From a phage, in sequence record PZ445427.1: DNA of 64,000 nucleotides. The stretch is one strand, 5' to 3'. The first letter of the stretch is position 1, and the number at the start of each line of letters is the position of its first letter. Positions 9,277 to 64,000 of the stretch are shown piece by piece. A model generated the notes under the pieces. The model had not been told where the DNA came from and did no database searches. It saw nothing but the letters and a program-made list of their open reading frames with translations. The translations under genes were made by a program, and so were the position numbers.

Positions 9277-9305
9277 TTGCTTACTGAGTGAAATTCAAAT
9301 ATAAT
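9277..9305 (+). promoter_or_regulatory. T5-type early promoter
   Basis: ttgctt 9277..9282, 17 bp, tataat 9300..9305. Confidence 0.6.
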
Positions 9306-9329
9306 ATATTTTATAAATTGGAGACACTT

Positions 9330-47670: not shown

Positions 47671-48281
47671 TGTTTACACAACAAACCATTAAAGTAGTTG
47701 CAGATCATGAACTCGACACATGGGATTACAGCTTTAAAGATCTGACTGCTACAGTACAGTTTAAATCTATGCAACTGTCGTTTTTGCACACTGATCTTCA
47801 AGGTTGCAAGGAATTTCAGGCTAAACTCATGAATGCTCGTGCTATCTTTGGCACAGCTCGCATCCCGGCAGATAATCTGATTAATGCACTAATCGATGCG
47901 GGGTATAAACTCATGAAGACTGAGGTGAACCGCCCTAGTACTCCAGTGACTATTCGGGATCCATGGCAGTCAGGGCCAATCGCAATGCTGAATAATTCTG
48001 ATAAAAGATTAATGTCGGATATGCACAATGTTCCTTGTGGTGGCGTGGTAAGCAATACACAATCATATAAGTTTGGGGAAGCATCTAGCGTAGACGAGTG
48101 GGATAAAGCTGGCGTTGCAATGATGGGCTTTGCAAAAGATCGCGGAGCACAAGAAGACTCCGGAGTTTCTAGGAACTCATATACTATTCGTTTGAGCAAT
48201 CCTAGCAAAGAAGGTGAGCTTGAAGAAATGTTAACGAAAGTATTCGAAGCTATTGATGCAGATAAAGCTAGAGGTCGTTAA
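47670..48281 (+). CDS. hypothetical protein (203 aa)
   Basis: TAATG coupling. Confidence 0.55.
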   Translation: MFTQQTIKVVADHELDTWDYSFKDLTATVQFKSMQLSFLHTDLQGCKEFQAKLMNARAIFGTARIPADNLINALIDAGYKLMKTEVNRPSTPVTIRDPWQSGPIAMLNNSDKRLMSDMHNVPCGGVVSNTQSYKFGEASSVDEWDKAGVAMMGFAKDRGAQEDSGVSRNSYTIRLSNPSKEGELEEMLTKVFEAIDADKARGR

Positions 48282-49171
48282 TGGGATTTTATAGTAATAG
48301 AAAGCCGAAAGGTGTAGTTGGTAAATTCGCGGTGGAAGAGAGACCTTTTCCACCGGTCGATGTAGAGAAACTACGTGAACTTCTCGAAATGTTAGAGGGC
48401 TGCCATGAACGTTGTTACTCTGAGCTTTCTTTAAACGAGAAACGTGTTGTTGAGATGTTCTGTATTCGGTCAGCTAGAACAGTTAGAGGTACTTCTCCAA
48501 AAGATGAAATAAAAGAATACAGAGTTCTAGTGATGCATGCTTGGGCACAACGTTTTGCAGTTCATTCACTTCAGGAATGGTTTAATCTTCCAGCATATAA
48601 AGACTTCCATGTTTATGAAGATGAAGTTATGAATTATAATGAGTTGTACGGTTTGTCATTTAAAAAGACAGGCTCACCAATGCATGATGCACTCAATTCA
48701 TTCCCTGATCATTATCTTCCAGTTCGTGAATACAGAGATCGTGAGGGAAATAAACCTTGCTTCACTATATGGAATAAGTCTAAGACAATATCTGATCTAG
48801 ACAATTATTGGTTCCGCACAAAAGAAGGATTCCTAGGAACAGAACCTTTACCTAAGGATCTCAAGCCTATCCTCCCACCTGTGAAACCTAAGCATGAAGT
48901 AACGATTGCTATTAATAGAATAATTCTAGGAGCAGATGATCTTACTAAACAAATCGCCGCAGTTATTGCAGTTCTGTTTGAAGGTACAAAATCTTCCCCA
49001 CGTTATGAAAAGCTAACTGATAACAAATTGCAGATACCTAACGAGTTGTACGAGAGTTCATGTAAGATCTATGATAACTTCAGTAAAGTAGATTACCCTG
49101 TGAGATCCATCAAAGAACTCATGGAGTATGCGGAGATGGGGATGAAAGGAAATCTCATGTTCGATGAATAA
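48281..49171 (+). CDS. hypothetical protein (296 aa)
   Basis: TAATG coupling; last gene before repeat region. Confidence 0.55.
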   Translation: MGFYSNRKPKGVVGKFAVEERPFPPVDVEKLRELLEMLEGCHERCYSELSLNEKRVVEMFCIRSARTVRGTSPKDEIKEYRVLVMHAWAQRFAVHSLQEWFNLPAYKDFHVYEDEVMNYNELYGLSFKKTGSPMHDALNSFPDHYLPVREYRDREGNKPCFTIWNKSKTISDLDNYWFRTKEGFLGTEPLPKDLKPILPPVKPKHEVTIAINRIILGADDLTKQIAAVIAVLFEGTKSSPRYEKLTDNKLQIPNELYESSCKIYDNFSKVDYPVRSIKELMEYAEMGMKGNLMFDE

Positions 49172-49178
49172 ACTCTAC

Positions 49179-49207
49179 TTGACGTTATGATTTCTGCATG
49201 TTATAAT
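49179..49207 (+). promoter_or_regulatory. strong sigma70 promoter TTGACG-17-TGtTATAAT pointing into ORF-free repeat region
   Basis: ttgacg 49179..49184, extended -10 tg at 49199..49200, tataat 49202..49207. Confidence 0.55.
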
Positions 49208-49213
49208 AACTCT

Positions 49214-49400
49214 ATGAAATAACATAGAATAAAGAGATCCACCCGGATACGGATGGTGGATGGGAAACTTCTATTTCCCCCGTAGCTTGTCGGAGGGCTA
49301 GGGAAATCTTCAGAAGTTTTGTACCATCTCACGCAATTCGTATCCCAGGGGTGGAGCATCTCTCACAATCCCTTGGGGATCTTATACTTATATAAAAACT
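49214..49400 (+). ncRNA. candidate structured non-coding RNA
   Basis: Promoter-proximal ORF-free GC-rich segment with multiple local hairpins (gggaaacttctatttccc; cccagggg ... cccttgggg). Confidence 0.3.
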
Positions 49401-49456
49401 AATACTGTTGAATAGATAAATTAACGTTCAAGATGATACACTTGTTGCCGCCGCTC

Positions 49457-49650
49457 TTCCTAGGATGGCACAACACTTTCTAGTAGACTCCTAAGTTTCT
49501 AGGAAAACTCACACCAACTCAGGCGGTTTTCATATTCCTAGAAACTCTAGCAATAGGCGGTTTAATACAGGGCGGTTATTTCTAGGAGACATTTTTCCAA
49601 AACACATTTCTGGAAATTGCTATCGGATTTGCACTCTGTGTTTCTAGAAA
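49457..49650. repeat. array of about 8 TTCTAG(G/A)A motifs with 3 interspersed (A/G)GGCGGTT motifs
   Basis: tcctagga 49459, ttctagta 49479, ttctagga 49498, tcctagaa 49536, ttctagga 49580, ttctggaa 49609, ttctagaa 49643; ggcggtt at 49522, 49556, 49571. Confidence 0.6.
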
Positions 49651-50222
49651 TTTATGGTCGGATTTGCACAATTGCCTAAGTTTTCATGAACACATACTCT
49701 CCTGAAAATAACAGCATTATTTCGGGCCGAAGGCCCATGATTGCCTGAGTTTTTAGAGCCACAGGAATTTTCACTTGTCAAGCTATTTTGCCCCATTTTG
49801 CTAATAAAATTTCGCATAATCTCGCCCCACGCCCAATTATCCCAAAACATCCCACATTATCCCCAAAAACGCAGCAAACTAGGCGTTGCACGCCCTTCCA
49901 GCTGCTACTTTCGTAGTTCCTCCCAAAATCTCATCGGATTCGCACTTCTCCCCAAACTCACACAATCACACACCCTCCAATCGAAGTCACAAAAATCTTG
50001 TCGGTTCTGCACACCTTAACACTTGTCGGATTTGCACATATTCTAGTAAATCCAGCTGGATTGCATCGCAGTTGCGGATTGCTGGAGTTTTTAGGAAAAT
50101 TCATTGTCGGATTCGCACACTGTAAAAATATTTCCCATCGGATTTGCACACTACCAAAAATTGTCGGATTCGCACATGCACGCTGGCACGTAATCCATGG
50201 TGGCAAATGTCGGATTTGCACA
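49622..50222. repeat. dispersed array of about 9 copies of GTCGGATT(T/C)GCACA
   Basis: Copies at about 49622, 49657, 49932, 50000, 50025, 50106, 50137, 50163, 50209 plus 2 degenerate copies near 50057..50085. Confidence 0.7.
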
Positions 50223-50257
50223 AAAGCGCAGGGCAAAATGAAAATGCCCTGCCTGCC

Positions 50258-50405
50258 GAAATGCGAATGATAATGAGATTGATTCGCATTTGAGAAGTTG
50301 AATGCGAATGATAATGATTCGCGTTTAGAAAGGGGAATGAGAATGGTTATCCTTTACAGAGTTGAATACGAATGAGTCGCATTTAGAAAGCGAAGTGAGA
50401 AACAC
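50258..50405. repeat. three tandem palindromic units AATGCGAAT-N-ATTCGCATT
   Basis: gaatgcgaatgataatga...gattcgcattt repeated at 50260, 50301, 50367. Confidence 0.6.
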
Positions 50406-50416
50406 TGTTATTTAAG

Positions 50417-50425
50417 TTATCCACA
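50417..50425 (+). promoter_or_regulatory. consensus DnaA box TTATCCACA
   Basis: Exact 9-mer; two 8/9 copies TTATCAACA at 50478 and 50490. Confidence 0.55.
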
Positions 50426-50506
50426 GGTTTATTAACAGCACGATTTGACTTGACAAAATCCTAGTGATTTTGAGGCGTTATCAACAGACTTATCAACAGG
50501 TTATTC

Positions 50507-50526
50507 TACTGTATATTTATACAGTA
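50507..50526. promoter_or_regulatory. LexA (SOS) box-like palindrome TACTGTATATTTATACAGTA
   Basis: 19/20 match to TACTGTATATATATACAGTA consensus (CTGT-N8-ACAG). Confidence 0.5.
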
Positions 50527-50555
50527 TTCCTGCGTAGTGAATAACTCTAATATAG

Positions 50556-50587
50556 CTCTAAAACGCTCTCAAACGCATTCTAACGCG
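50556..50587 (+). repeat. 31-bp direct repeat copy 1 (tctaaaacgctctcaaacgcattctaacgcg)
   Basis: Second copy at 54824..54854 with 3 mismatches. Confidence 0.6.
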
Positions 50588-50627
50588 TTTATTTTTGGAG
50601 GACGTATTTTAATAAGGGGAAATTTGA

Positions 50628-50668
50628 GGAAGGCCAGAAAAAGCGGGGCCGATAGTTGCGCCCCGTTA
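50628..50668 (-). terminator. rho-independent terminator (minus strand)
   Basis: cggggc ... gccccg hairpin; minus strand reads stem then CTTTTTCT. Confidence 0.5.
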
Positions 50669-50671
50669 TTA

Positions 50672-50866
50672 TTAGTCCGGTATTTGATGGGAGAACTCTA
50701 CGCTTTCACCGTAGGAATCTACTAGATTAGTGTAGTAACCATACTCATCATATATAAGTTTGTCATACTCTTGATTCTCACAAATTGCGCGGTTTTCTTT
50801 TGTATCTTCTACATAGAATGTATCCACGGTAACACTAGTTTTACGAATAACAATTTTATCACTCAT
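50672..50866 (-). CDS. hypothetical protein (64 aa)
   Basis: Track ORF, last gene of minus-strand operon inside IR-bracketed cassette. Confidence 0.5.
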   Translation of the reverse strand: MSDKIVIRKTSVTVDTFYVEDTKENRAICENQEYDKLIYDEYGYYTNLVDSYGESVEFSHQIPD

Positions 50867-50883
50867 AGTAACGCCCTCTTTTA

Positions 50884-51144
50884 TTAGTATTCTGTATTAG
50901 TTATAACTATAGCCGTATTTTCTAATTGTCCAGCACTTTCCGCTAAAAATGTAATATGTGCTGTATTGTTAATATAGATTGACTTATGCGCATTTCTTAA
51001 AGCATAAGCCCACCCACGGATCGCTGGCAAAATCTTGTCAAGCGATATATTTTGCGCTCTCAATTCCTTAGCGCGTACTGCCATTGCTTCATGTGCTTCA
51101 GTCAGTCCCTTAACTGTAAAAATACCGTTGCCGTGGTTGATCAT
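50884..51144 (-). CDS. hypothetical protein (86 aa)
   Basis: Track ORF, minus-strand operon. Confidence 0.5.
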   Translation of the reverse strand: MINHGNGIFTVKGLTEAHEAMAVRAKELRAQNISLDKILPAIRGWAYALRNAHKSIYINNTAHITFLAESAGQLENTAIVITNTEY

Positions 51145-51270
51145 AGTGCCATTGCTCCTAGAATGAGAATGATTATCAATATCATTGTAAAGCCATTACC
51201 AAATCGTAAACGCTGGGAATGTTTCCCAGCGGTATTATTAGATTTATGGCTTTGTGTTTTTCGCCACCAG

Positions 51271-51471
51271 CTATTCACGGTAAACGCTCCAACCGTCTAG
51301 CTTCCATTCCTCCCCCTTGCGAATATTGAAAAACCAATCATTAAAATTGTAACCATCTTCCGACATGATCACGCCGTTTTCTTTCATGTACAAAAACTCA
51401 TCGCTAGTAAAATATTGATTACTAACTTTGAAACCTTGTTTCATTTTTTCTAACGCTTCATCTTTAGTCAT
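51271..51471 (-). CDS. hypothetical protein (66 aa)
   Basis: Track ORF, 4-nt overlap with upstream gene. Confidence 0.5.
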   Translation of the reverse strand: MTKDEALEKMKQGFKVSNQYFTSDEFLYMKENGVIMSEDGYNFNDWFFNIRKGEEWKLDGWSVYRE

Positions 51472-51812
51472 TGTGCAATTTCCCGAAACGCTGTTTCAAT
51501 ACTTTCAGCGGTTGATTGAATATATGCGCCTTTCATAATCAGGCGCTCTGTACATACTTTGCGGAAAATGTCAATAAATTCATTTTCATTTTCTGCTACT
51601 AATGGCTCACCCATAACCTGTACATCACATGCGCCAAAAGTAAGAAACTGGAAGGCAAGCTCGCGAGCAACAACGGCATTAATCTTATAATGTGATTTGC
51701 CCTCATAGATATTAACCACGCCTTTATAAACTGGTGAAAGCTGATTTAAATAGCTTGCTAATAATGCCGGACGGCAATTAGTAACAAAACGATTACCCTC
51801 GTAAATAACCAT
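51468..51812 (-). CDS. hypothetical protein (114 aa)
   Basis: Track ORF, minus-strand operon. Confidence 0.55.
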   Translation of the reverse strand: MVIYEGNRFVTNCRPALLASYLNQLSPVYKGVVNIYEGKSHYKINAVVARELAFQFLTFGACDVQVMGEPLVAENENEFIDIFRKVCTERLIMKGAYIQSTAESIETAFREIAQ

Positions 51813-51921
51813 TTGTCAAGCTCCTAAAGCTGGGAAAATATCAGGTACATTTTTAAAACAAATGCAGCGAATGAGCAAACAACGCCAACGGTAGCAAACG
51901 CTAGAGCAATATATAAGGATC

Positions 51922-52134
51922 TCATAATACCCCACGAAAAGCAGCGTAAAAGGTGGCAAAGTGTTTAACCGTTTCGGCTACCAAATTTCCGCGCTTGTCA
52001 AATTTCTTTTCAGTAACACGGAAAGCGTTTTTGTTACGTGCTACATATTCGATTTTACAATCTGGACGCTCAAACGTGTTAACATCCACCAGCTTAAAAC
52101 CTTTAGAACGGGCAAGGGAAACATTCTTTAACAT
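51922..52134 (-). CDS. hypothetical protein (70 aa)
   Basis: Track ORF; preceded on minus strand by extended -10 TGTTATAAT (plus 52192..52200). Confidence 0.5.
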   Translation of the reverse strand: MLKNVSLARSKGFKLVDVNTFERPDCKIEYVARNKNAFRVTEKKFDKRGNLVAETVKHFATFYAAFRGVL

Positions 52135-52191
52135 TTGCTTAACTCCTAGAAATCAGGGAAAATTTTCAATCCACCGTTTCGGTGTAAAGGC

Positions 52192-52200
52192 ATTATAACA
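52192..52200 (-). promoter_or_regulatory. extended -10 promoter element TGTTATAAT (minus strand)
   Basis: plus-strand attataaca; no clear -35. Confidence 0.35.
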
Positions 52201-52228
52201 AAAAAGGCCGCCGATTAGGGCGACCTTT
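52200..52228 (-). terminator. rho-independent terminator (minus strand)
   Basis: Minus strand reads aggtcgccc-taat-cggcggcct then TTTTTTGT. Confidence 0.55.
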
Positions 52229-52241
52229 ACAAAACTTTACA

Positions 52242-52763
52242 TTACATATATCTGATTATTGCATCGCCGTATAGCTCGCTTTCAGATCGTAACACTTGCT
52301 CGAAACGCTGGTATTCTAGCGCCCTGTTTTCTTTTGGGAAATAGCAAGCGTTTTCTAGTGCCTTTTGATAAACATGCAATTCATTATCAAAACGCTGAAC
52401 GATCCCCAGTTCTAGCAAGGCTTTATATACTTCATCCTCACCATGACCACCATTAACAAATTGATAACTTTTCGTGAATTGCCAGCGGTACGCCGTTGCG
52501 CCCACGTCTGGATTTTCTACCATGTTGCAATCGTCACACTCGCAATCATTAGCAGACTCATCACAATTCTGACAGATTTCATGATTGCTAAAACTGGAGG
52601 CGTTTTCCATCGCCATTTCATGCAACGGCGTTTCAATATCGCCAGCGAAAAAATGTTCTACGCTTGCCCATTGTTCGCCGTGGGTATTAGTGTAACAGTA
52701 CACTAGTGCAATGATCGGATGATCAATATGTGATCCGGTTACTACGTCGCCATACTTTGACAT
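52242..52763 (-). CDS. hypothetical Cys-rich protein (173 aa)
   Basis: Track ORF; CQNCDESANDCECDDC cluster. Confidence 0.55.
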   Translation of the reverse strand: MSKYGDVVTGSHIDHPIIALVYCYTNTHGEQWASVEHFFAGDIETPLHEMAMENASSFSNHEICQNCDESANDCECDDCNMVENPDVGATAYRWQFTKSYQFVNGGHGEDEVYKALLELGIVQRFDNELHVYQKALENACYFPKENRALEYQRFEQVLRSESELYGDAIIRYM

Positions 52764-52777
52764 TAATTAGTCTCCTA

Positions 52778-53086
52778 TTAATTAGCAGGGAAATAAAGAG
52801 AATTTGCTACATCGTAAAATCCTTTATTCAAGAAAATTACGTCATCACGGACTATTTCATCCATTCCATAATCCAGCAAAGTTTCATCTACAAAAATACA
52901 TAGCCAGCCATAACCACGATCAAAGAAAGCATGATAATTATTCGCGCTTTCTACATGTTCCCATAAAAAGGGACGGCCTTGCTTTTCCCATATAGGAATA
53001 TTGCTTTGATCGTCTGAATAATTAACGTGTGGGCTATTCGGCATCTTTTCGGCTAATTGCGTCAACATGATTTGATTCAGTTGCAT
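52778..53086 (-). CDS. hypothetical protein (102 aa)
   Basis: Track ORF. Confidence 0.5.
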   Translation of the reverse strand: MQLNQIMLTQLAEKMPNSPHVNYSDDQSNIPIWEKQGRPFLWEHVESANNYHAFFDRGYGWLCIFVDETLLDYGMDEIVRDDVIFLNKGFYDVANSLYFPAN

Positions 53087-53118
53087 AATAAGTAGTCTCC
53101 TAACAATTAACAGGGAAA

Positions 53119-53145
53119 TAGTAAAGCGGGGAAATAATCCCCGCT
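53119..53145 (-). terminator. hairpin terminator (minus strand)
   Basis: agcgggga-aataa-tccccgct; same stem recurs at 56588. Confidence 0.45.
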
Positions 53146-53153
53146 AGTTATTA

Positions 53154-54149
53154 TTATTCTGTTTCGGTGTTTTGGGTAAAGGTAGAAATGTCAATACCTT
53201 TTACCATTTCATCGATCATTTCAGCAATATTGAAACTTTGTACCATTTCCAACATTGCCGCTTCCATTGCCGCGCCTGCTACCGCTTTAGCTTTCGCATT
53301 AGTCGGGGCGTACTGGTCAACCGCTACACTCAGCAGGTTAGCGATCACTACACGACCAATCGGCGTATCAATATACCCTTTAATCATAAACGGCGCTTTT
53401 TTCGCCGCTACTTTTGTGATTTGAGTCAGTGCAATTTTACCCGCTTCCAGTTTAGCAGCGTTAACAACGGCGGATTTATTAGCGGCAACGATAGAAGATA
53501 CTTTAGACATAATATTTCCTTTATTTTCAGTAGTTTGCGCATTTGCGCTTGAAGTTTGAGAGTTTACAGCCTGTTTTGTTACGTTGTCAAGCGGTAAAAG
53601 TGTAAATCCAGCGTTTGCAACGTTTGATTCATTCCCATACTCTAAATAATCGTTAGGGATCAACATGTTACCGCTAGCGCGTTCAAAACACAATACGCCA
53701 GTTGTTTCGATTGCGTCACTATCAGCACGTTTAATGGCGCTTGTCAATTCGCCCCAAATACTAGATAGTAAATCTTCTACATCGCTGGAATTAATACCAT
53801 TTACGCGAGTAGCGAAAACCATTTCCTTTTCTTGTACATTGTAACCACGGGCAATATAGCTTTTTTCGTCGTGACCTACAATGATAAAATCAATATCGCT
53901 TCCCCGCTGATTTCGCATGATGTGATAGTCACGGTTGTAAAGCACTAGAACGCGGGTAGGGTCTAGTAGTTGTGTGAAATCACTTAAACAATAATGAGTA
54001 TCATTATTATCTAAAATATCATCGTGAATCTTTTCAACCATTGCCGCCGTATGTTGTAGGCTTGCTGGACTTGATCCGTCTAGCAGGTTGCGCAAACTAC
54101 CCTTAATAATAGTGGCGTTTGCTGGTACTGCAATTCTTACAGTAGACAT
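53154..54149 (-). CDS. hypothetical protein (331 aa)
   Basis: GGGAGACAAAGA RBS; first gene of cassette. Confidence 0.6.
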   Translation of the reverse strand: MSTVRIAVPANATIIKGSLRNLLDGSSPASLQHTAAMVEKIHDDILDNNDTHYCLSDFTQLLDPTRVLVLYNRDYHIMRNQRGSDIDFIIVGHDEKSYIARGYNVQEKEMVFATRVNGINSSDVEDLLSSIWGELTSAIKRADSDAIETTGVLCFERASGNMLIPNDYLEYGNESNVANAGFTLLPLDNVTKQAVNSQTSSANAQTTENKGNIMSKVSSIVAANKSAVVNAAKLEAGKIALTQITKVAAKKAPFMIKGYIDTPIGRVVIANLLSVAVDQYAPTNAKAKAVAGAAMEAAMLEMVQSFNIAEMIDEMVKGIDISTFTQNTETE

Positions 54150-54396
54150 TTCTTTGTCTCCCTCGTTAATCGGTGAGTGAATGATATAGATAATTGTTCG
54201 CTAGGGGCAAGAAAAAAGAAAAGGTTTTTTATTTCTTGCTTACTGCCTGTTTTTATGATAACCGCGCGTTTTCTATTTCTAGCTCTCTGTAAGCGTACAC
54301 AAGGCTTTATTATAGTAAGGGGTAATGCTGAAAAACCGCTTAGAACGCGTTTTAGGCCGCTTAAATTTGATTGCGGTTGTTACTGCTACCATTCTA

Positions 54397-54416
54397 CCCT
54401 GTATATTTATACAGTA
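54397..54416. promoter_or_regulatory. LexA (SOS) box-like palindrome (core CTGTATATTTATACAG identical to 50509..50524)
   Basis: ccctgtatatttatacagtagg. Confidence 0.5.
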
Positions 54417-54436
54417 GGATAACCTGTACATAAGTC

Positions 54437-54445
54437 TGTGGATAA
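54437..54445 (-). promoter_or_regulatory. consensus DnaA box (TGTGGATAA)
   Basis: Exact reverse complement of TTATCCACA. Confidence 0.55.
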
Positions 54446-54485
54446 GTCGCCAAAACGTCGCCTATTACGTCAAGTTATTTTGTGC

Positions 54486-54494
54486 TGTGGATAA
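54486..54494 (-). promoter_or_regulatory. consensus DnaA box (TGTGGATAA)
   Basis: Exact reverse complement of TTATCCACA; 8/9 copy at 54770. Confidence 0.55.
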
Positions 54495-54823
54495 CTTTGT
54501 GAATAACCTAAATGATAGTGGTTCTCACTTAGCCGATAGTTTCTTATAGTTATTATTTCTCTTTAATTTATAAATATATTATATAATATGAAATAGTTAG
54601 TTGGCTAATAGGTTTTTAGAGTATTAATAGTCTGCTAACTGTTTCGGCTGTTACAATCCACCAGCGTGATTATCATCCTAGCGATTGTTAGTCTACTAAT
54701 GCTCTGATGCACGTCCAGACTTATTTGTCAATGAAAAATAACAGCAGAAAATACTTTTTTGAAAAATCAAGTGGATAACTCATTAAATTTCATTTTTGCT
54801 TTTTGTATAAGTTATTAACAGGG

Positions 54824-54854
54824 TCTAAAACGCTCTGTAACGCATTCTAAGCGC
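54824..54854 (+). repeat. 31-bp direct repeat copy 2
   Basis: tctaaaacgctctgtaacgcattctaagcgc. Confidence 0.6.
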
Positions 54855-54921
54855 CTCAAAGGAAAAGATAGGCAATCATAAGGGGTACACCGAGAAAACC
54901 TCACCACGAGGATTTTAGATT

Positions 54922-54949
54922 TTGTCAAGTAGGGCAAAGCAAATATAAA
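54922..54949 (+). promoter_or_regulatory. candidate sigma70 promoter TTGTCA-16-TATAAA
   Basis: ttgtca 54922..54927, tataaa 54944..54949. Confidence 0.35.
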
Positions 54950-55180
54950 TGAAAAAATTACTTGCTAAAATGGTTGTTTTGGTGTTATTCGCGCGCCTGT
55001 TTCATTAAATTTAGTGCGCCGCTGGACGTTTGCGGGTAGTGGTTTTCTTTACGTTTCTTTACAAAAATACGCTTGCGCCATTTTCGGGAATAACCTATTA
55101 TTTATCTCGTAGGACGGCAAGACGGAAACGAAAGGCCAGACTACAACGGCGGGGAAGTTTACCGCCATGCTCTTTAAAAA

Positions 55181-55206
55181 CTAGGGAACATCTTAAAGCC
55201 TATCGG
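55181..55206. repeat. 26-bp inverted repeat, left copy (partner 55468..55495)
   Basis: ctagggaacatcttaaagcctatcgg vs reverse complement of ccgataggttttaagatgttccccgtag; flanked by 12-bp direct repeat gctctttaaaaa at 55169 and 55501. Confidence 0.6.
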
Positions 55207-55240
55207 CGGTAAACTTATACATTATAAGGAATCGACGATA

Positions 55241-55459
55241 ATGATCAAATCAAAAAACGCTTTAGTGATTAGTGCAAAACCTGCTAGCCCACTGGATAGC
55301 AGAACAAAAAATTTGTTGACAGTAGCGCAACGATCTGTAAAATACAGATTCAAGCAATACAAGAAAGGCAAGCAACAAGGGCTGGAAATGGTGTGGCGTA
55401 ATATAATGATTGATTTATATAACTCACATCAAATCGAAAAAAGTTTAAAAAACGCTTGA
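55241..55459 (+). CDS. hypothetical basic protein (72 aa) bracketed by inverted repeats
   Basis: Track ORF; lies exactly between the 26-bp IR copies. Confidence 0.45.
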   Translation: MIKSKNALVISAKPASPLDSRTKNLLTVAQRSVKYRFKQYKKGKQQGLEMVWRNIMIDLYNSHQIEKSLKNA

Positions 55460-55484
55460 CACGCTAGCCGATAGGTTTTAAGAT
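55456..55484 (+). promoter_or_regulatory. candidate sigma70 promoter TTGACA-17-TAAGAT
   Basis: ttgaca 55456..55461 overlapping right IR copy. Confidence 0.4.
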
Positions 55485-55495
55485 GTTCCCCGTAG
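55468..55495. repeat. 26-bp inverted repeat, right copy
   Basis: See 55181..55206. Confidence 0.6.
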
Positions 55496-55623
55496 TAACT
55501 GCTCTTTAAAAATTTGGATAACGGTAATGTTTAGGCTAACTCCTAGCGGATTATAATCTAATAGCGTTTCAAAGTATCGAGGCGCTATTGTGGAATAATC
55601 CCCAATAAACCGGAGTATTAAAA

Positions 55624-55875
55624 ATGCAAAACGTTATTACCGCGCCGAAAGTAGGTCAATCTGTATTCATTCCTTTTGTAACTAAAACGGATGAATTAAC
55701 CGGAAAAGCCGAACGTATTAAAGGTGCGGCGCTTGATCCCTTTGATAAGATTGAAGCGGTCTATGCGGAAACGGAACGCAGTAACCACGGCAAGCCTATT
55801 TATAACGTCCGTGTTAAATCTGGCGACGTTGTAAAAATCATTCAGAAAGATGATAAATGGCAAGCTATCGCATAA
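55624..55875 (+). CDS. hypothetical protein (83 aa)
   Basis: GGAGTATTAAAAATG initiation region (motif shared by several genes in this block). Confidence 0.55.
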   Translation: MQNVITAPKVGQSVFIPFVTKTDELTGKAERIKGAALDPFDKIEAVYAETERSNHGKPIYNVRVKSGDVVKIIQKDDKWQAIA

Positions 55876-56161
55876 ATTAATGCGCCTTACATATCATGCT
55901 TAGTTAGGCAATAAAGATAACTCGAAATATTCCTAGCGTGAACGGAATAATAAACAGCGTATAAATACAATGTTGCCTTATTAATTCTCTGGCAAGCCGG
56001 ATAAGGTGAGAATATAAATATATTCGGGAATTAATAAACCGCTTGAAACTGGAAATAAAAATAAAATGTTTCCGTTATATATTCTAGCTAATAGAATATA
56101 TAGCGATTAACATTTAGTTAATCATAATCCCTTAATTAATAATTGAATGGAGTATTAAATT

Positions 56162-56578
56162 ATGTCTAACGTTAAAACCGAAAAAACCGCAAAATTCTCT
56201 TGGAACGAAGAAAACACCGAAAAGGCTGTTTCTATGTATTCTGAAATGGTCGCTAAAAGCGGAATTGAATTTGCTAACAGTGACGGCCTGAAAGAAATTG
56301 CCGCCGCCGTTGGCGCTGCAAGCCCTGTTTCTGTACGTTCTAAACTGACAAGCGCAAAAGCGTACCAGAAAAGTGATAAACCGCGTAAAGTTGGCGGCGG
56401 GTCTAGTGTCCGTAAAGCTCACTATGTGCGCGTTATGGCTAAACATGCCATTGATGCTGGCGTTATCAAAGACGCTGATGATCTGGCAAGTCTGGAAAGT
56501 GCAAAACTGGAAACGCTGGAAGCCGTAGCGCAATTGTTAGGCGTAGCGGAGGAAGTAAAACAGGCCGCAGGTGAATAA
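56162..56578 (+). CDS. hypothetical protein (138 aa), possible A2-like pre-early DNA-binding protein
   Basis: GGAGTATTAAATTATG; position immediately upstream of the A1-like gene; identity is positional inference only. Confidence 0.35.
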   Translation: MSNVKTEKTAKFSWNEENTEKAVSMYSEMVAKSGIEFANSDGLKEIAAAVGAASPVSVRSKLTSAKAYQKSDKPRKVGGGSSVRKAHYVRVMAKHAIDAGVIKDADDLASLESAKLETLEAVAQLLGVAEEVKQAAGE

Positions 56579-56587
56579 ATTTTAATT

Positions 56588-56612
56588 AGCGGGGATTATT
56601 CCCCGCTATAAT
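56588..56612 (+). terminator. hairpin, probable terminator
   Basis: agcgggga-ttatt-ccccgct then ATAATTT. Confidence 0.45.
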
Positions 56613-56636
56613 TTCCCTTTGACCGGAGTTATTAAA

Positions 56637-56864
56637 ATGATCTTCTTCCCTAGTGAAGCGTTTATTTTAGGTTTATTTATAGTTGCCGCTATATTTATAT
56701 TTAATTACGGCAAATATATAATCTCTATTATCGGCATTAATTCAGCTTATGCCGCTGATATGTTTAAACGTCAAGCTAATAAACAAAAATATCTAGCGAT
56801 TATATTTTTAACGCTGGCTATTAGTTGCGGTTTTAGTTCTAGTCTTATGCCAATTCTAGAATAA
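56637..56864 (+). CDS. small membrane protein (75 aa)
   Basis: ATG 56637 after GGAGTTATTAAA; two TM segments; track start 56619 is upstream. Confidence 0.5.
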   Translation: MIFFPSEAFILGLFIVAAIFIFNYGKYIISIIGINSAYAADMFKRQANKQKYLAIIFLTLAISCGFSSSLMPILE

Positions 56865-56972
56865 TATTGCAAATTATAACGCCTTTTAAATTGTCCTCAC
56901 TTCAGGCAAGGCGTTATATTTGGCAATATTGCCAGTATTAATATTTATCCCTTTATAGGAGTTGATTTAGTT

Positions 56973-58637
56973 ATGAATATTTCCGCAGAAAAACAAGCTC
57001 AAATTCTGAAAATGGCCGCAGATTTTAACTTCTACGGTAAGCGTTTACGCGCTACTAAATTGGAAGTTTGCGACGATATTTCAAAAGCTGTTTATGATAC
57101 GCCGAAACATTCGACCGCAATTTGTGACTGGTTGGAAGCAAATAAGCCAGCGAAACCGAAAGCGGCAAAAGCTGAAAAGGCGATTAAAAATGATGATCGC
57201 CCCGAAGCGGCGGGGATTGTTTCTAGTACCGTCGAACAATGGGAAGTTAAATCCGGTCGCCGTTTTATTCTAACGTCGATTCAAAATAATACTTTCCCGC
57301 ATAAAAACTTTTTAGCAAGTCTGGAAAAATTCGCTGAATATTGCGGCGCTGAATTGCTGGTTAGTAAATTCATTTATAATAAAAATGGATTCCAGAATGG
57401 GGAAGGTAGCGACGGCATCAAATACGATCCCGCATTTAATAAATATATTTGCGAGAAAAACGTATTTTTAAATAATCGCCGCTTTGCTTTCATGGCTGAA
57501 ATTAACGTTTTACCAACGGCAGATTATCCGCTTTCAGGATTCGCAGAAACCGCCACGGCTTTAAATATTGAAGGGCTGGCAATCGGTCACGCTAAAATCA
57601 CCGCTGAAAGTGTACCAGCGTTAAAAGGTGAAGTAGTGCGCCGTATGTATTCAACCGGAACGGCGACACTAAAAAACTATATCCAGCAAAAGGCGGGACA
57701 AAAAGCCGAGGCTTTACATAATTTCGGCGCTTTGCTGGTAGAGTTTGACGACGACGGAGAATTTTATTGCCGCCAGCTTGAAACAATGGACGAAAGCGGA
57801 ATGTTCTACGATTTGAACGTGTGCGCTATCGCTACCGGATGTTATGAAACATCGGGCCATGTTCTAGGCTTGCAATATGGCGATATTCACGCCGAAAAAT
57901 TAGATGATGAATGCGCCGTTGCTTCATGGGCTAGTGAAAACAGCTTGCTTGATATTCTCAAGCCTAAATATCAATTTATTCATGATGTGCATGATTTTAC
58001 ATCGCGTAACCATCACAACCGCGCTAGTGGTGTATTCCTTGCTAAACAGTACGCCGCCGGACGTGATAAAGTTATTGATGATCTTATCGATACTGGACGC
58101 GTTTTAGAGTCTATGGAGCGTGATTTCTCTCAAACAATCATTGTGGAATCCAACCATGATTTAGCTCTTTCACGCTGGCTAGATGATCGTAACGCAAACA
58201 TTAAAGACGATCCCGCAAACGCGGAATTGTATCACCGTCTAAACGCTGCGATTTACGCCGCTATTGCTGAAAAGGATGATACCTTTAACGTTCTAGATTA
58301 CGCCTTGCGTAGTGTCGCAGGTTGCGAATTTAACGCTATTTTCCTGACGACAGACCAATCATTTAAAATCGCTGGCATTGAATGCGGCGTACACGGTCAC
58401 AATGGCATTAACGGCAGTCGGGGCAATCCTAAGCAGTTTAAAAAGTTGGGACGCCTTAACACTGGTCATACTCATACGGCTAGCATTTACGGCGGCGTTT
58501 ATACCGCTGGCGTGGCGGGGTCGCTTGATATGGGCTACAACGTGGGCGCGTCAAGCTGGACGCAAACGCATTTAATTACCTATGCAAACGGGCAACGTAC
58601 TTTGATTGATTTCAAAAACGGTAAATTCTTTGCATAA
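56973..58637 (+). CDS. A1: calcineurin-like metallophosphoesterase nuclease, T5 A1-like pre-early protein
   Basis: 554 aa; full set of metallophosphoesterase motifs (GDIH, IHDVHD, ESNHD, GVHGHNG, TGHTHT); TAGGAG RBS; assignment to T5 A1 rests on size, motif set and gene context. Confidence 0.5.
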   Translation: MNISAEKQAQILKMAADFNFYGKRLRATKLEVCDDISKAVYDTPKHSTAICDWLEANKPAKPKAAKAEKAIKNDDRPEAAGIVSSTVEQWEVKSGRRFILTSIQNNTFPHKNFLASLEKFAEYCGAELLVSKFIYNKNGFQNGEGSDGIKYDPAFNKYICEKNVFLNNRRFAFMAEINVLPTADYPLSGFAETATALNIEGLAIGHAKITAESVPALKGEVVRRMYSTGTATLKNYIQQKAGQKAEALHNFGALLVEFDDDGEFYCRQLETMDESGMFYDLNVCAIATGCYETSGHVLGLQYGDIHAEKLDDECAVASWASENSLLDILKPKYQFIHDVHDFTSRNHHNRASGVFLAKQYAAGRDKVIDDLIDTGRVLESMERDFSQTIIVESNHDLALSRWLDDRNANIKDDPANAELYHRLNAAIYAAIAEKDDTFNVLDYALRSVAGCEFNAIFLTTDQSFKIAGIECGVHGHNGINGSRGNPKQFKKLGRLNTGHTHTASIYGGVYTAGVAGSLDMGYNVGASSWTQTHLITYANGQRTLIDFKNGKFFA

Positions 58638-58689
58638 TTAAATTTAATCGGCGGTTGAAATATACCGCCATTAATAAAAGGTTTATTAA

Positions 58690-58968
58690 ATGGCTAGTAA
58701 AATTAATATATCTATCCCTGATAGCAATTGTTTAGAAGATATTGCATGGTCTGAAATGTCTTTTGATAGTTGCGTTTATTTAGTTACCCGTGGAATGTAC
58801 GCGGGAATGTATGCCGTATGGGATAGTAATATTGGCGAAAATATGATCTTTTTCGGAAAAGATTCTATTCAGGTAATGACAGGCGATTACCTTAATCAAG
58901 AAAGGAAAGACGGCGACGAAACATATTTTCGTAAAACTGATTTATCTTTAAATGTATTTTTTCAATAA
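58690..58968 (+). CDS. hypothetical protein (92 aa)
   Basis: Track ORF. Confidence 0.5.
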   Translation: MASKINISIPDSNCLEDIAWSEMSFDSCVYLVTRGMYAGMYAVWDSNIGENMIFFGKDSIQVMTGDYLNQERKDGDETYFRKTDLSLNVFFQ

Positions 58969-59000
58969 ATCCCGTAATTAAATAATCTGGAGTCATAAAC

Positions 59001-59393
59001 ATGAAACAACAAAATATTCCTTTTGACCGCGCTACTTCTTCCATCGTTCTAGTTTATTCTAACGGCGAACGTTATCACGTTGAAGCGGGGCAAGTTAATT
59101 TCGATTTGCTAAATTATAATGACGCTTTGCAGGTTACTACCTTTGCTTATGATACCGGCAAAGTGGCAAGCCATACGAAAGCAAAAGGCGTTTACGCTGA
59201 TACTTTGACAGTGCAAACAATCATTATTGATGCGCTTAAATCCGGTCTAGCGTTTGCAGTTGTTAAGCCGTGTCCGGTCTGCAATCCCGAAGCTAGCGCA
59301 ATGGTTTATACTTGCGCGGGGATTCGTTCTAGCGTACATGGTGAAGATCTTAGTTTTATTGGTGACGCGCTAGCGTATGGCCTCACTAACTAA
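59001..59393 (+). CDS. hypothetical protein (130 aa)
   Basis: CTGGAG RBS. Confidence 0.5.
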   Translation: MKQQNIPFDRATSSIVLVYSNGERYHVEAGQVNFDLLNYNDALQVTTFAYDTGKVASHTKAKGVYADTLTVQTIIIDALKSGLAFAVVKPCPVCNPEASAMVYTCAGIRSSVHGEDLSFIGDALAYGLTN

Positions 59394-59480
59394 TAGTTAA
59401 TTGAACATTGCCAGCTAATCTAATATAATTAGCTGGCAAGATTGAATTAACCTAAATCCCTTAAATGGAGAATGTAACAA

Positions 59481-60215
59481 ATGAATCAAGTCAACATGAA
59501 TATTACCCGCACTTTCCCGCATATTTCCCGCGTTATGATTTGGGATTTAGACGGAACGATTATAAATTCTTTCCATCGTGTAGCGCCTTGCTTTGATGAT
59601 AACGGGAATTTAGATTTAAATAAGTATTCTCGCGAAGCCTGCAAACATGATTTAATTATGCAAGATTCTTTATTGCCGTTGGTTGAATATATGCGCCAAT
59701 GTATGAATGATGCAAATACATTAAATATAATTTGTACCGCGCGCTTAATGTCTAAAAGCGATTATTTTTATTTACGCAAACAAGGCTTGCGAGGGCGCGG
59801 AAATAGTAATATTCGCGTATTTTCCCGCGATACATTACATAAATACTTTGATGCAAATAAGGTTAGCGAAATATATCACAGTAAAGACGCTGTATATAAA
59901 TCTTATTACTTTGAACTGTTTAAACAGCTATATCCTAACGCTGATTTTACAATGATTGATGATCATAAAGGTGTATTATCGGCGGCGGCAAGTGCTGGAT
60001 TTAAAACGCTGGACGCTCAAGCCGTTAATGATATCCTATCAATCGGCGTAACATTGATCGGTGAAACCTTTATTGATGAATCGCTTGATGATGATAACGA
60101 TTATCAATTCCTAGCCGAACGTTTAAAAATGTGTTGGGAAGGTATGACCGAGGAAGAACGCGCGGAATATAGTACCACTCCGCAACAATTCATTGATAAA
60201 TTAAAAGTTGCCTAA
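59481..60215 (+). CDS. dmp: HAD-superfamily 5'-deoxyribonucleotidase (T5 Dmp-like)
   Basis: 244 aa; HAD motif I IWDLDGTIINS; TGGAGA RBS; last gene of the pre-early-like block. Confidence 0.55.
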   Translation: MNQVNMNITRTFPHISRVMIWDLDGTIINSFHRVAPCFDDNGNLDLNKYSREACKHDLIMQDSLLPLVEYMRQCMNDANTLNIICTARLMSKSDYFYLRKQGLRGRGNSNIRVFSRDTLHKYFDANKVSEIYHSKDAVYKSYYFELFKQLYPNADFTMIDDHKGVLSAAASAGFKTLDAQAVNDILSIGVTLIGETFIDESLDDDNDYQFLAERLKMCWEGMTEEERAEYSTTPQQFIDKLKVA

Positions 60216-60227
60216 CAATTAAAAATA

Positions 60228-60264
60228 AAATAGTCACACTGTGTAATGATAACATGGTGTGACT
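60228..60264 (+). terminator. 10-bp perfect hairpin after dmp-like gene
   Basis: atagtcacac ... gtgtgactat; no clear U-tract. Confidence 0.35.
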
Positions 60265-60378
60265 ATTAGCTTGCTAAGTACCGGGGCGGTAATGAGACTC
60301 ATTCTCATCTAGGGAACCTCTGGGCACACCTTCATGTGTAATCTTATGAGATTTCGAGAATTGGTAATTAGCGCTAAC

Positions 60379-60624
60379 TTAGGAGGAACACCGGTCTACC
60401 GGCTTGTCTCCTGATTCTGACATACGAAATCTCCTCCGCGATGCCCGAGATCCATCCGACCACTCTCGCTCAAACTCCTCCCGTTTCTCCGCAAACTTCC
60501 GCTCCCTTTCCGAAAGCTCCCGCGATACTCCCGCAATATATTCACGATGCTTATTAATCGCCCCGAGTGTTCCGAAGATTCCCGCAAGCACCCTGATAAT
60601 AAAGATAGCTACAAAGCTAAACAT
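60379..60624 (-). CDS. small membrane-anchored charged protein (81 aa)
   Basis: Track ORF; N-terminal TM then ERERKFAEKREEFERE. Confidence 0.45.
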   Translation of the reverse strand: MFSFVAIFIIRVLAGIFGTLGAINKHREYIAGVSRELSERERKFAEKREEFEREWSDGSRASRRRFRMSESGDKPVDRCSS

Positions 60625-60811
60625 CTAATTCCCTCTCAAGTTGGTGAATACGTGCCCGATCATTACGTTGGGAGTCCAGTAACTTATCCATATTAATATT
60701 CAGTTGGGTGACTTTATCCTCTAGCCGCTGTATACGATTACGATGTGACGTCATATATCCAACAATCCAGACAAGCCATACTACAAGTGTAATAAGTCCT
60801 AGCCAATCCAT
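60617..60811 (-). CDS. small membrane protein with coiled-coil tail (64 aa)
   Basis: Track ORF; 8-nt overlap with downstream gene. Confidence 0.45.
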   Translation of the reverse strand: MDWLGLITLVVWLVWIVGYMTSHRNRIQRLEDKVTQLNINMDKLLDSQRNDRARIHQLERELDV

Positions 60812-60916
60812 TATTTGTCTCCCCGCAGCTTACGTTCTATACGAGCTAAGTGGTTATCTAGAATGCACTGTCCGATAATTACCACAACTAGTAAAGCAAT
60901 AATTACTACTTCCATT
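60812..60916 (-). CDS. small hydrophobic peptide (34 aa)
   Basis: ATG at 60916 on minus strand; MEVVIIALLVVVIIG...; below track cutoff. Confidence 0.25.
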
Positions 60917-60987
60917 ATAACCACCCCGCCATAGCTGCTAACCAAAAGAGTACAAAGATAAAGAATAACACAGTCCCGAATCCGAAA

Positions 60988-61302
60988 CTATTTATCCAAC
61001 TTTCGTACACTTCCCCGCGTCTGTTCTTTCTTCTGTTGTCGTCTGACATCTCTTTGCTTCTCCTGTAGTCCTGGTATTTGGAATATCCTAGCAATTGCAC
61101 GAACCATTATGACCGTCCCGATAAGATCCATTACTTCATCGAAGCCGGATTCTTCTAGTAAGAAGGATGTTCCCATCACATCTTCCATTGTATCTTCTAT
61201 GACGTCTTGAATGATTTCGTTAATTGCATCATGTATTGCTTTAGTCCTGGGATCTATTTCAAAGTTAACAGGTTCCTGAAAGGCCTTTTCTTCATCTTGC
61301 AT
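60988..61302 (-). CDS. hypothetical acidic protein (104 aa)
   Basis: Track ORF; overlaps alternative ORF 60915..61100 in another frame. Confidence 0.4.
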   Translation of the reverse strand: MQDEEKAFQEPVNFEIDPRTKAIHDAINEIIQDVIEDTMEDVMGTSFLLEESGFDEVMDLIGTVIMVRAIARIFQIPGLQEKQRDVRRQQKKEQTRGSVRKLDK

Positions 61303-61376
61303 TGTGTTTGCTACCTGTACCTCATCCCAGAAATAAAAATTTTTGTTTACTTCGAGATCTTTTTACTTTATACTAA

Positions 61377-61643
61377 TTACAAGTGACCAGATTGTTCTAG
61401 TTTAAATTTGCAATCGCCATATTTGAGGTCAAACTGTGACAAATCCCACCACCCAAACTTAGTGCGTAACTGAGTTTTAGGGAATCGGTAGCCCACAGTA
61501 CGTGCTTCTCGAATATCTAAAGCATAGTGTTCTTCACCAACATGACCATAAGACTTCACGTATGCCTTACAGAATGGCTCGGGAGCTGGTACACAACCAG
61601 TCAACACTACTGCTGCAACTACGATAGCTAATAACTTTTTCAT
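61377..61643 (-). CDS. lipoprotein (88 aa), possibly Llp-like receptor-blocking lipoprotein
   Basis: Signal peptide with lipobox VVLTGC; divergently transcribed from adjacent receptor-binding-protein-like gene, as T5 llp is from oad. Confidence 0.45.
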   Translation of the reverse strand: MKKLLAIVVAAVVLTGCVPAPEPFCKAYVKSYGHVGEEHYALDIREARTVGYRFPKTQLRTKFGWWDLSQFDLKYGDCKFKLEQSGHL

Positions 61644-61726
61644 AATCGTTCCTCTGTTTAATTTATAAATATATTATAGCAAAATAGAGGGATCTAAGCA
61701 AATACATTTTTAAAGAAGGAGATTGT

Positions 61727-63508
61727 ATGAGTTTTTTCGCAGGAAAATTTAGTGATGGTAAAACTGTATTATCGCTAAACGCTGCTAATGGTGGTGATAC
61801 TGGTGAACACTACTCTCCAAATACTAATAGTATCTTTCACTCAGATATGCCTTTCGTCCTGGTTGATGGGACTTATGAAGCGGCTCTAGGTAATGCAGGT
61901 AATGGATACTTTGTTACTCAGATGCCTTGGGATATTATAAATATTAAATCCAATGATCCGGGTAGAGTTATATTAACTGCTATTGAGATTAATGGTACCC
62001 ATAGAGGATTCCTCAATGGTACTCAATCTCAGGTTGGTAGCTATTTAACTCTTGCGGAGGATCCAGGTTTTAGAGCATTCGCTCAAGTAGGCTTAAGTTC
62101 TGCTTTTGCAATCGGCGATAGTCTAGCACACGGTACTTATATTTATAATAGTGGATTAGGACATGAAGAGTCTATAGCCAGACAAGGTACTGGCGGAACA
62201 ATTATACAATCATCAGATGTGGGTATAGTGAGACCTGGGGGTGTTCCGGTAGGGGAAGCGGTTGCCAGAGCATATGAAATGCTTGGATTTCCTAGAGGAA
62301 CTATTAATGTACCTATAAATGCCGGAGATTTAAACTATTGGGATCCTAACTGGCAGGCACCTATTGGTTCTGCCGGTAGAGGTCATGATCATTTCTACGT
62401 ATGTAACTCAAATATTCGCAGCTATATAGGTAAGAAAAAAGAAATACCGGCAAATGTAAATCATATCTATTCCTCCCCTACTTTTCCTTATCTATATACC
62501 TGTAGAGGTTCGGCTAGTAATATGGGTTCTCAGTCTGTTAACACTGTTTATATTCAGGACTGGTATAATATTACACCTACTAAGGTTATCTGGTATGTTT
62601 TAAACCTACGTTACTCTAATGGTAATATGGTGGTTTCTGGTAATCCATTTACTGGTTCTGATATCCTTATCTCTCCATCTAACTTTACTATTAAAGGGGT
62701 AAGTTTACCTAACTCTGGTTATAAATTTATTAATCAGAATGCCTTTGGTAATCTAGGTTATCGTTCAGATATGGAATATATAGGTAATAATGCTGCGTAT
62801 ACTGGGGTTTTTGGGGATACTACTGCGCGATGTGAATTCATTGGCTCTAGCAATGGTGGATTATGGTCTCCAGTTAACTATGGGGGTGCTGCCTCTCAGA
62901 TTAGTTTATATAAGTTTGGTGCAGGTAAACAATGGTATGTAGATACTAATAGTAATTCCATAGGAAATGAACATGGTCCAGTTTGGAGTCCCTCTACAGT
63001 TCCACTACGATTATTCCCTGGTAACGTTGCTAGTACTTATGTTGGGGATGATATAAATCCATCTTACCCAGCGGCAGGCAACTATTATCAGCCTTTAGCT
63101 ACTGTATGGTTGGGTCTGCCTAATGCTCATTCTACTATTATACTAACCACTGAAGTTATTATGGGTAATATTAATACTGCTGGAATGCCTGTGCGTACTT
63201 ACGGAGGTAGTGCTTGGCAGGTACAAGGTAGACGGCAACAAAGTTATACTGCTGGTGATGGTATATTTCATCAAATACTAACATTGCCTCCAGGATATCT
63301 AGTACCATATCATAGTACTACAGCATATAGTTATACACAGGAATGGGCGAGCCGACCAGATAGTATGATTTTTAGAAGGAATGGTTATATTTATACTATT
63401 AAAAACCTTGGTAATGGCAACGTTGAGTTGGGTGTTATTATCCATGCTGCAGAAGCAGCTGCTATCTTCTTACCAAGACTACGTGTAACAGTTCAACGCC
63501 TAACCTAA
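61727..63508 (+). CDS. tail receptor-binding protein-like (pb5/Oad-like), 593 aa
   Basis: GGAGA RBS; large Gly/Asn/Ser/Tyr-rich beta-type protein; position next to lipoprotein gene; identity by context and composition only. Confidence 0.45.
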
Positions 63509-63518
63509 AGGAGGATAT

Positions 63519-64000
63519 ATGGCAAATGATGTATTAGTTCCCGATCTCATGTCTCCCGAAGGCATGGATGTTATTGAAGCCTATTTACAGTGTAGTAGCG
63601 ACGTTCCTGCCGCCGCTCGTAGTCTTGGTATGTCCGAGATTGCATTTCGTGATATAATGAATCGTGGAGAAGTTAAAAACTATCTCAACGATATATTTAT
63701 GGAAAGCGGCTTCCGTAACCGTGACCGTTTATTCGGAGTTCTTGATGAAGTTATCAAGCGTAAGCTGGAAGAACTTGAAGAAACTGGCATGGGTTCTGAC
63801 CAGGATATCATGGATATTCTCTGGAAGGCGCATAAGATGAAGATGGAAGAAATGAAAATGATGGTAGAACTGGAGAAAGTGAAGGCAGCAGCTCGTACTC
63901 CGGCTAACCAGACTAACATTCAGAATAATATTATTGCTGGAAGTGGTGACGAAAACTATATGAATCTTATTACCGCTCTAGCAGGAGGGGGTAAGAGATA
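63519..64000 (+). CDS. HTH-containing protein, 5' part (terminase small subunit-like); continues beyond window
   Basis: AAAGGAGGA RBS; N-terminal [16 protein letters not shown] helix-turn-helix then coiled-coil. Confidence 0.35.

Follow-up and report, generated by a model that had tools for sequence, protein, structure and literature searches.

A T5-type long terminal repeat present as a single copy between early and late genes in a phage genome record

In bacteriophage T5 (NC_005859) a long direct terminal repeat is annotated at 1..10219 and 111532..121750, and it is established that the dmp-proximal end of the DNA enters the cell first, that transfer pauses at an injection-stop region, and that the pre-early genes then act, with A1 and A2 permitting the second step of transfer. 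Both copies of the repeat are also available in two Salmonella phages of the genus Epseptimavirus: SIY1lw (PP105779), where the 10101-bp copies at 1..10101 and 113832..123932 were set from reads with PhageTerm, and BD13 (NC_092681), where a self-match gives a repeat of 10,570 bp. These three genomes served as the two-copy references. For BF23 a repeat of 9,743 bp was set from reads with PhageTerm, and that of phiR2-01 measures 9,901 bp. Here we describe the corresponding element in a 64,000-nt stretch of phage DNA (sequence record PZ445427.1; this whole stretch is called the window below, and all positions refer to it). Within the part 49172..64000 we predict that this element, the first-step-transfer DNA, is present once, at 49756..60325 (10,570 bp, equal in length to that of BD13; the T5 convention adds base 60326), with predicted DNA ends at 49755/49756 and 60325/60326.

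A megablast search of 50,697 phage records with 49172..64000 matched 554 T5-like records at 80-94% identity, mostly phages of Salmonella, Escherichia and Klebsiella, the best being Epseptimavirus at 90-94%. By these matches the phage is classed as T5-like, within the Markadamsvirinae, and Epseptimavirus-like. The window is oriented in reverse of the T5 reference, and it passes from early genes, which reach 49171, through a non-coding spacer of 584 bp into one copy of the terminal repeat and then into the final part of the late region.

On the early side the alignment of T5, SIY1lw and BD13 places the boundary within ...GAGTTTTTA/GAGCCACAGG..., the slash corresponding to window 49755/49756. With BF23 and phiR2-01 added, the boundary falls in the same alignment column across five independent records. 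Window 49756 pairs exactly with base 121750, the last of the T5 genome, and two records with full repeats begin in the megablast output at query base 585, which is the same position. On the late side the left genome end of T5 aligns to window 60326; SIY1lw and BD13 stop at ...CTCTGGGC (window 60325), T5 and BF23 run one base further, to 60326, and the records OR122687 and MK050846 start or end precisely at 60326. The first-pass annotation of this DNA had placed a physical end somewhere in 60216..61376, and the predicted end at 60325/60326 falls in that interval; the second end, at 49755/49756, had been missed.

Several points weigh against so exact a placement. The ends are derived from relatives that are 77-94% identical and not from the reads or virion DNA of this phage, and the convention of T5 and BF23 puts the late-side end 1 nt away from that of SIY1lw and BD13. 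In the more distant relatives phiR2-01 and IME260 the annotated late-side ends lie further inside, by 72 nt and ca. 20 nt, respectively, and the early-side boundary of IME260 is placed 20 nt out. The sequence of these two phages stays homologous up to the T5-type late-side position, closely in phiR2-01 and weakly in IME260. Their offset late-side ends could reflect imprecise annotation or genuinely different cut sites. We thus consider the predicted boundary base to hold to ±1 nt within the genus and to be less certain beyond it.

Many relatives have been deposited as records of ca. 111 kb with arbitrary start points, as would be expected if packaging were headful and the genome truly circularly permuted, without fixed ends; in that case nothing about the block order would call for explanation. 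However, all relatives with examined ends (T5, BF23, SIY1lw, IME260 and phiR2-01) have fixed ends and long direct repeats, and the window retains intact, highly conserved boundary sequences, which counts against headful packaging. We consider it very improbable for this phage.

Unlike the resolved two-copy genomes, in which no single copy of the repeat is flanked by both early and late DNA, the copy in the window has both flanks, and the arrangement is therefore that of a collapsed repeat or of a concatemer junction. In blastn comparisons window 49370-50648 aligns unbroken across the junction of the T5 left repeat with the early region, window 58966-61099 aligns unbroken across the junction of the late region with the T5 right repeat, and the alignment of the window to the T5 right repeat ends exactly at the last base of T5. 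From the order of the blocks it had been suggested at the outset that the terminal repeat was collapsed or the assembly circularly permuted. This agrees with every homology test run: the boundaries are homologous to those of T5, BF23, SIY1lw and BD13, both of them coincide with T5 ends, and in the T5 alignment the early-repeat and repeat-late contiguities occur only at opposite ends of the linear genome, not around one copy. We consider it very likely from these comparisons that two identical terminal repeat copies of ca. 10.57 kb were merged in the assembly and that the 'circle' so formed was then linearised at an arbitrary point. The packaged DNA would then have the order repeat, late genes, ..., early genes, repeat, with ends at 49756 and 60325/6, and the contiguous early-repeat-late order would be physically present only in replicative concatemers.

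Such a merger is directly documented for SIY1lw, for which SPAdes gave one contig of 113,831 bp that PhageTerm reorganised to 123,932 bp (SIY1lw paper), the former length being the genome length less one repeat of 10,101 bp. The records that cover the full 14.8-kb query contiguously (e.g. Shin27, INF11 and Wa28) measure 111-113 kb, approximately the unique sequence plus one repeat. According to Davison (bioRxiv 10.1101/866236) many T5-like GenBank records misplace dmp, A1 and A2 as a result of the repeats being mishandled by assemblers. The gene order could also be read as a genuine rearrangement that put the pre-early block between early and late genes, with the true ends elsewhere in the genome. 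The bare gene order is all that speaks for it, whereas this order and both junctions match base for base a merged T5 left and right repeat, and more than 100 records show the same early-repeat-late contiguity at a length of unique sequence plus one repeat. We give a rearrangement almost no credence.

A merged repeat is also what physically real DNA would look like if the sequence came from replicative concatemers or from infected-cell DNA, for example in a metagenome, with the units joined via one repeat copy. The early-repeat-late order is exactly the appearance of a concatemer junction, the best matches in the phage collection are 90-94% identical, with the window's own record not among them, and some of the closest contigs whose receptor-binding protein is identical are assemblies of raw runs. 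By sequence alone this origin is indistinguishable from collapse; short-read assembly of virion DNA yields the same contig, as with SIY1lw, and we hold a concatemer origin to be unlikely. The repeat boundaries are the same whether the order arose in the assembler or in the sample. The feature is a standard T5-type terminal repeat in collapsed form, which is already known and a routine outcome of assembly. Left as it is, the collapsed form understates the genome length by ca. 10.6 kb, leaves the gene count short by roughly 15-18 genes that are present twice, and puts the pre-early genes apparently between early and late genes. Anyone who annotates or deposits this genome would do well to add back the missing repeat copy and to let the record begin at one of the true ends (49756 or, in the orientation of T5, 60326).

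As judged from the alignments, the anatomy of the predicted repeat follows the published map of the T5 first-step-transfer DNA. Reading inward from 60325, the end that is injected first, dmp, A1 and A2 follow in that order, and the inner end carries a large untranslated injection-stop region with an inverted repeat, paired DnaA boxes and direct repeats of the DRD type. The boundaries are at the positions of the family, in the same column on the early side and within 1 nt on the late side. The flanks are the first early gene on one side and the T5.159-162/llp/oad end of the late region on the other. The elements at and near the inner end are:

49172..49755, unique non-coding spacer separating the early region from the repeat
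49934..50221, plus strand, seven DRD-type direct repeats TCGGWTYYGCAC inside the terminal repeat, part of the injection-stop region
50225..50232, plus strand, match to the nick consensus, AGCGCAGG, at a position homologous to the T5 7.9% nick
50390..50524, inverted-repeat arm IRD'-spacer-IRC' of 135 nt, with a DnaA box TTATCCACA at 50417 and TTATCAACA variants
54399..54533, second arm of this inverted repeat, IRC-spacer-IRD, containing DnaA boxes at 54437, 54486 and 54498

In all there are nine TCGGWTYYGCAC repeats of the DRD type, at 49623-50221, two of which (TCGGATTTGCAC, at 49623 and 49658) lie in the spacer outside the terminal repeat, as in T5, where Repeat Region 3 extends ca. 270 bp past the repeat into unique DNA (Davison, bioRxiv 10.1101/866236). 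The repeats at 49934..50221 correspond to the T5 iss annotation 9140..10149 and to Davison's Repeat Region 3. A separate 'repeat region', which the first-pass annotation had set between the early genes and the pre-early block, does not exist as such: its initial 584 bp belong to the unique spacer, and what follows is already the inner portion of the terminal repeat.

The consensus of the major nicks in T5 DNA is R/GCGCRGG (PMC3517423). A T5 nick is annotated at 9748/9749. The window contains three matches to this consensus (17588-17595, 37265-37272 and 50225-50232), all on the plus strand, a number that does not exceed chance expectation (2.5). They lie 42.7, 23.1 and 10.1 kb, respectively, from the predicted left end at 60326. 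These distances are close to those of the major nicks of T5, which are located at 32.6%, 18.5% and 7.9% of the genome. At 49179-49207 on the plus strand, directly after the last early gene and pointing toward the repeat, there is a strong, near-consensus sigma-70-like site (TTGACG, 17 nt, TG-TATAAT, 11/12). Downstream of it, no plus-strand open reading frame (ORF) of at least 40 aa occurs before 49741, nor was a match to Rfam obtained, and an Rfam scan of 48500-64000 as a whole gave no match at E ≤ 0.1.

If the phage behaves as T5 does, the dmp-proximal end at window 60325 would be the first to enter the cell, and transfer would pause at ca. 50.2-50.6 kb, where the DRD repeats, the inverted repeat with its DnaA boxes and the putative nick site are found. 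The pre-early genes dmp, A1 and A2 would be expressed during the pause, and A1 and A2 would let the rest of the DNA enter.

Two non-coding segments adjoin the predicted ends:

49696..49815, the most conserved non-coding junction block, ca. 120 nt centred on ...GAGTTTTTA/GAGCCACAGGAATTTTCACTTGTCAAGCTATTTTGCCCC
60326..60378, unique late-side spacer between the repeat and the stop codon of the T5.162-like gene

Averaged over four other lineages (T5, BF23, phiR2-01 and IME260), identity to the window is 0.82-0.93 across 49696-49815. On either side it declines through intermediate values, reaching 0.24-0.31 at 49356-49415 and 0.33-0.41 at 49876-49915. Klebsiella phages (Sugarlandvirus) match only ca. 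49750-49864 of a 600-bp junction query covering 49456-50055. Just outside the boundary, at 49724-49736, lies the hairpin GGGCCGAAGGCCC, in place of which Klebsiella phage IME260 has a different hairpin, CACGGTG-TGT-CACCGTG. On the late side the conservation peak is modest. In an alignment of seven genomes the spacer contains the conserved sequence CACCTTCATGTGTAATCTTATGAG at 60327 and the palindrome AGCGCT at 60370-60375. The core AGCGCTAA (T5 orientation; window 60370-60378) is invariant in all seven, including IME260, and AGCGCTAAT is common to five of them.

Since the first end to enter the cell is the last to be packaged, packaging would be expected to start at 49755/49756, with the terminase running in the plus direction of the window and the terminating cut falling at 60325/60326 after the second repeat copy. 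We tentatively suggest, as a possibility and not as a firm assignment, that 49696-49815 is the packaging-initiation site of T5-like phages, where the terminase would recognise and cut the DNA, and that CACCTTCATGTGTAATCTTATGAG and the AGCGCTAA core mark the terminating cut. It weighs against this proposal that the packaging direction and the role of the conserved block are both inferred. By eye the alignments revealed nothing obvious that is common to both boundary sites, no formal comparison having been made, and in the literature searched no experimental definition of the T5 packaging or terminase site was found. The conservation peak at 49755/49756 is a concrete and testable candidate for this undefined site; apart from this peak at one repeat boundary, the locus holds nothing new for T5 biology.

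Near the late-side end two further features had been pointed out within the interval proposed for the terminus, the first being a hairpin:

60229..60267, hairpin with a perfect 11-bp stem (60229-60239 / 60257-60267), RNA fold -21.2 kcal/mol, z = -4.7

The first-pass annotation had described it as a perfect 10-bp hairpin at 60228..60264; the structure is real, but its stem is 1 bp longer and it lies inside the repeat. It sits 59-97 nt inside the repeat end, which rules it out as the DNA end itself, and it is followed on the minus strand by a T-run. BD13 (AC/GT to GG/CC), T5/BF23 and IME260 retain the stem although its sequence has changed, and a terminator fits the hairpin better than a DNA end because the structure is kept in this way among relatives. 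It is probably the terminator for the T5.159-162-like genes reading into the repeat, and possibly also for the converging dmp transcript. The second feature, a CT-rich tract at 60400..60560, is indeed rich in pyrimidines (64.6%, in the top 0.4% of windows of 161 nt). It is coding sequence and not an end: read on the opposite strand, the tract specifies the charged, Glu/Arg/Lys/Ser-rich tail of the protein homologous to T5.162, and it can be dismissed as a terminal signal.

The last gene of the early region and the genes inside the repeat are:

48281..49171, plus strand, last early-region gene, 296 aa, homologue of T5.018 (BLASTP, 43% identity, E 5e-47)
50672..54149, minus strand, pre-early accessory genes, including a DUF7566 gene (53154..54149) and homologues of T5.011-T5.015, with a content that is mosaic among relatives
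55241..60215, plus strand, pre-early genes, assigned by PHROG matches, blastn to T5, BF23 and phiR2-01, and start-site contexts, as follows
from 55241, plus strand, first gene of the plus-strand pre-early set
from 55624, plus strand, T5.007-like pre-early gene
56162..56578, plus strand, A2 (phrog_1725)
56637..56864, plus strand, T5.005-like pre-early membrane protein
56973..58637, plus strand, A1 (phrog_1745, E 2e-243)
58690..58968 and 59001..59393, plus strand, two pre-early genes between A1 and dmp
59481..60215, plus strand, dmp (phrog_415)

In the T5 annotation T5.018 is the first early gene adjoining the left repeat. Among the accessory genes, the segment 50684-51146 is without counterpart in SIY1lw, BD13 and T5, with the BF23 alignment reaching only 50875, and the segment 52270-53087 is missing from SIY1lw and present in BD13. 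Further into the early region the window contains 29 tRNA genes at 16287-31212, all on the plus strand, as is typical of the early region of T5-like phages.

Beyond the repeat the late region contributes the following genes:

60379..60624, minus strand, T5.162-like single-pass membrane protein, 81 aa, 73% identical to T5.162 (phrog_6447), with a charged C-terminal tail
60617..61049, minus strand, three small membrane proteins, equivalents of T5.161 (64 aa), T5.160 (34 aa, 60811..60915) and T5.159 (44 aa, 60915..61049)
60988..61302, minus strand, acidic 104-aa protein, not a membrane protein (phrog_16810)
61377..61643, minus strand, receptor-blocking lipoprotein of the Llp/Cor type, 88 aa, lipobox LTGC (phrog_1119, E 1e-23; LPAM_1)
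61727..63508, plus strand, receptor-binding tail protein pb5, 593 aa (phrog_4815, E 1e-268), 31-35% identical to T5 pb5
63519..64000, plus strand, terminase small subunit TerS, cut off by the end of the window, assigned from its translation and from PF26823 (T5_Terminase_small) at the same position in close relatives

The PHROG and BLASTP matches uphold the succession first read from the DNA, i.e. early genes, then an A1/dmp block, then small minus-strand membrane proteins, a lipoprotein and a 593-aa receptor-binding protein. The minus-strand proteins of 81, 64, 34 and 44 aa each have one hydrophobic segment, N- or C-terminal. The 44-aa membrane ORF (60915..61049) occupies the T5.159 slot by position alone and overlaps the 104-aa ORF (60988..61302) by 62 nt in another frame; of this pair relatives annotate only the 104-aa ORF. 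Counterparts of the lipoprotein are annotated as receptor-blocking protein in SIY1lw and BD13, and with T5 Llp it has the signal peptide alone in common. Because pb5 is divergent from that of T5 and the lipoprotein shares only the signal peptide with T5 Llp, the sequences suggest a receptor other than FhuA. Salmonella phage RA40 (OR242313) and record MT833283 encode 593-aa proteins identical to that of the window. A local copy of Pfam gave no match for A1, A2, dmp or the receptor-binding protein. Precomputed matches include T5-specific families for dmp, pb5, TerS and nicking-endonuclease homologues, with PF26860 (Phage_T5_RBP5) listed for a protein identical to the 593-aa pb5.

Two properties that had been thought to set the pre-early block apart did not hold up. 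A switch in composition is not seen, the G+C content being 0.402 in the early region, 0.394 in the repeat and 0.403 in the late region; the GC skew flips between the blocks, tracking the direction of transcription. The exact initiation motif GGAGTATTAAAATG is absent from the window, and allowing two mismatches gives two matches against 1.1 expected. Variants of it do occur: GGAGT(W1-2)TTAAA is found three times (55612, 56149 and 56625, plus strand) against 0.2 expected by chance, each time followed after 0-3 nt by ATG, before the three consecutive genes starting at 55624 (T5.007-like), 56162 (A2) and 56637 (T5.005-like). A1, dmp and the remaining pre-early genes have ordinary GGAG sites, as in early genes. 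As a signature of the whole block GGAGTATTAAAATG is ruled out, only the local three-gene variant being real; this shared start context may reflect a local duplication or shared translational control.

Compared with the known systems, the repeat described here resembles that of T5 in its order from the end (dmp, two small genes, A1, a membrane protein, A2), in the same non-coding repeat regions (IRC/IRD inverted repeat, DnaA boxes and DRD repeats, with a match to the nick consensus), in flanks formed by T5.018 next to the early genes and by T5.159-162, llp and oad next to the late genes, and in boundaries on homologous bases. It differs from T5 in a nucleotide identity of ca. 77%, in the HNH endonuclease insertion hegG (T5.010) of T5, which has no counterpart in the window alignment, in accessory pre-early genes that are mosaic at 50684-51146 and 52270-53087, in a receptor-binding protein that is 31-35% identical and an Llp that is unrelated beyond the signal peptide, and in the single repeat copy held by the window. 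The repeats of the Salmonella phages SIY1lw and BD13 (Epseptimavirus) are 88-96% identical in nucleotide sequence and start with GAGCCACAGG... as in the window, with one substitution in BD13, and their end ...CTCTGGGC is identical. Both of these genomes show the virion arrangement with a repeat at each end, whereas the window shows the merged form, and they differ from it in the accessory genes at 50.7-51.1 kb, the genes at 52.3-53.1 kb lacking in SIY1lw only. With the T5-like assemblies in GenBank that carry a collapsed repeat (ca. 108-115 kb, arbitrary start) the window shares the same early-repeat-late contiguity, and from these it shows no difference of substance.

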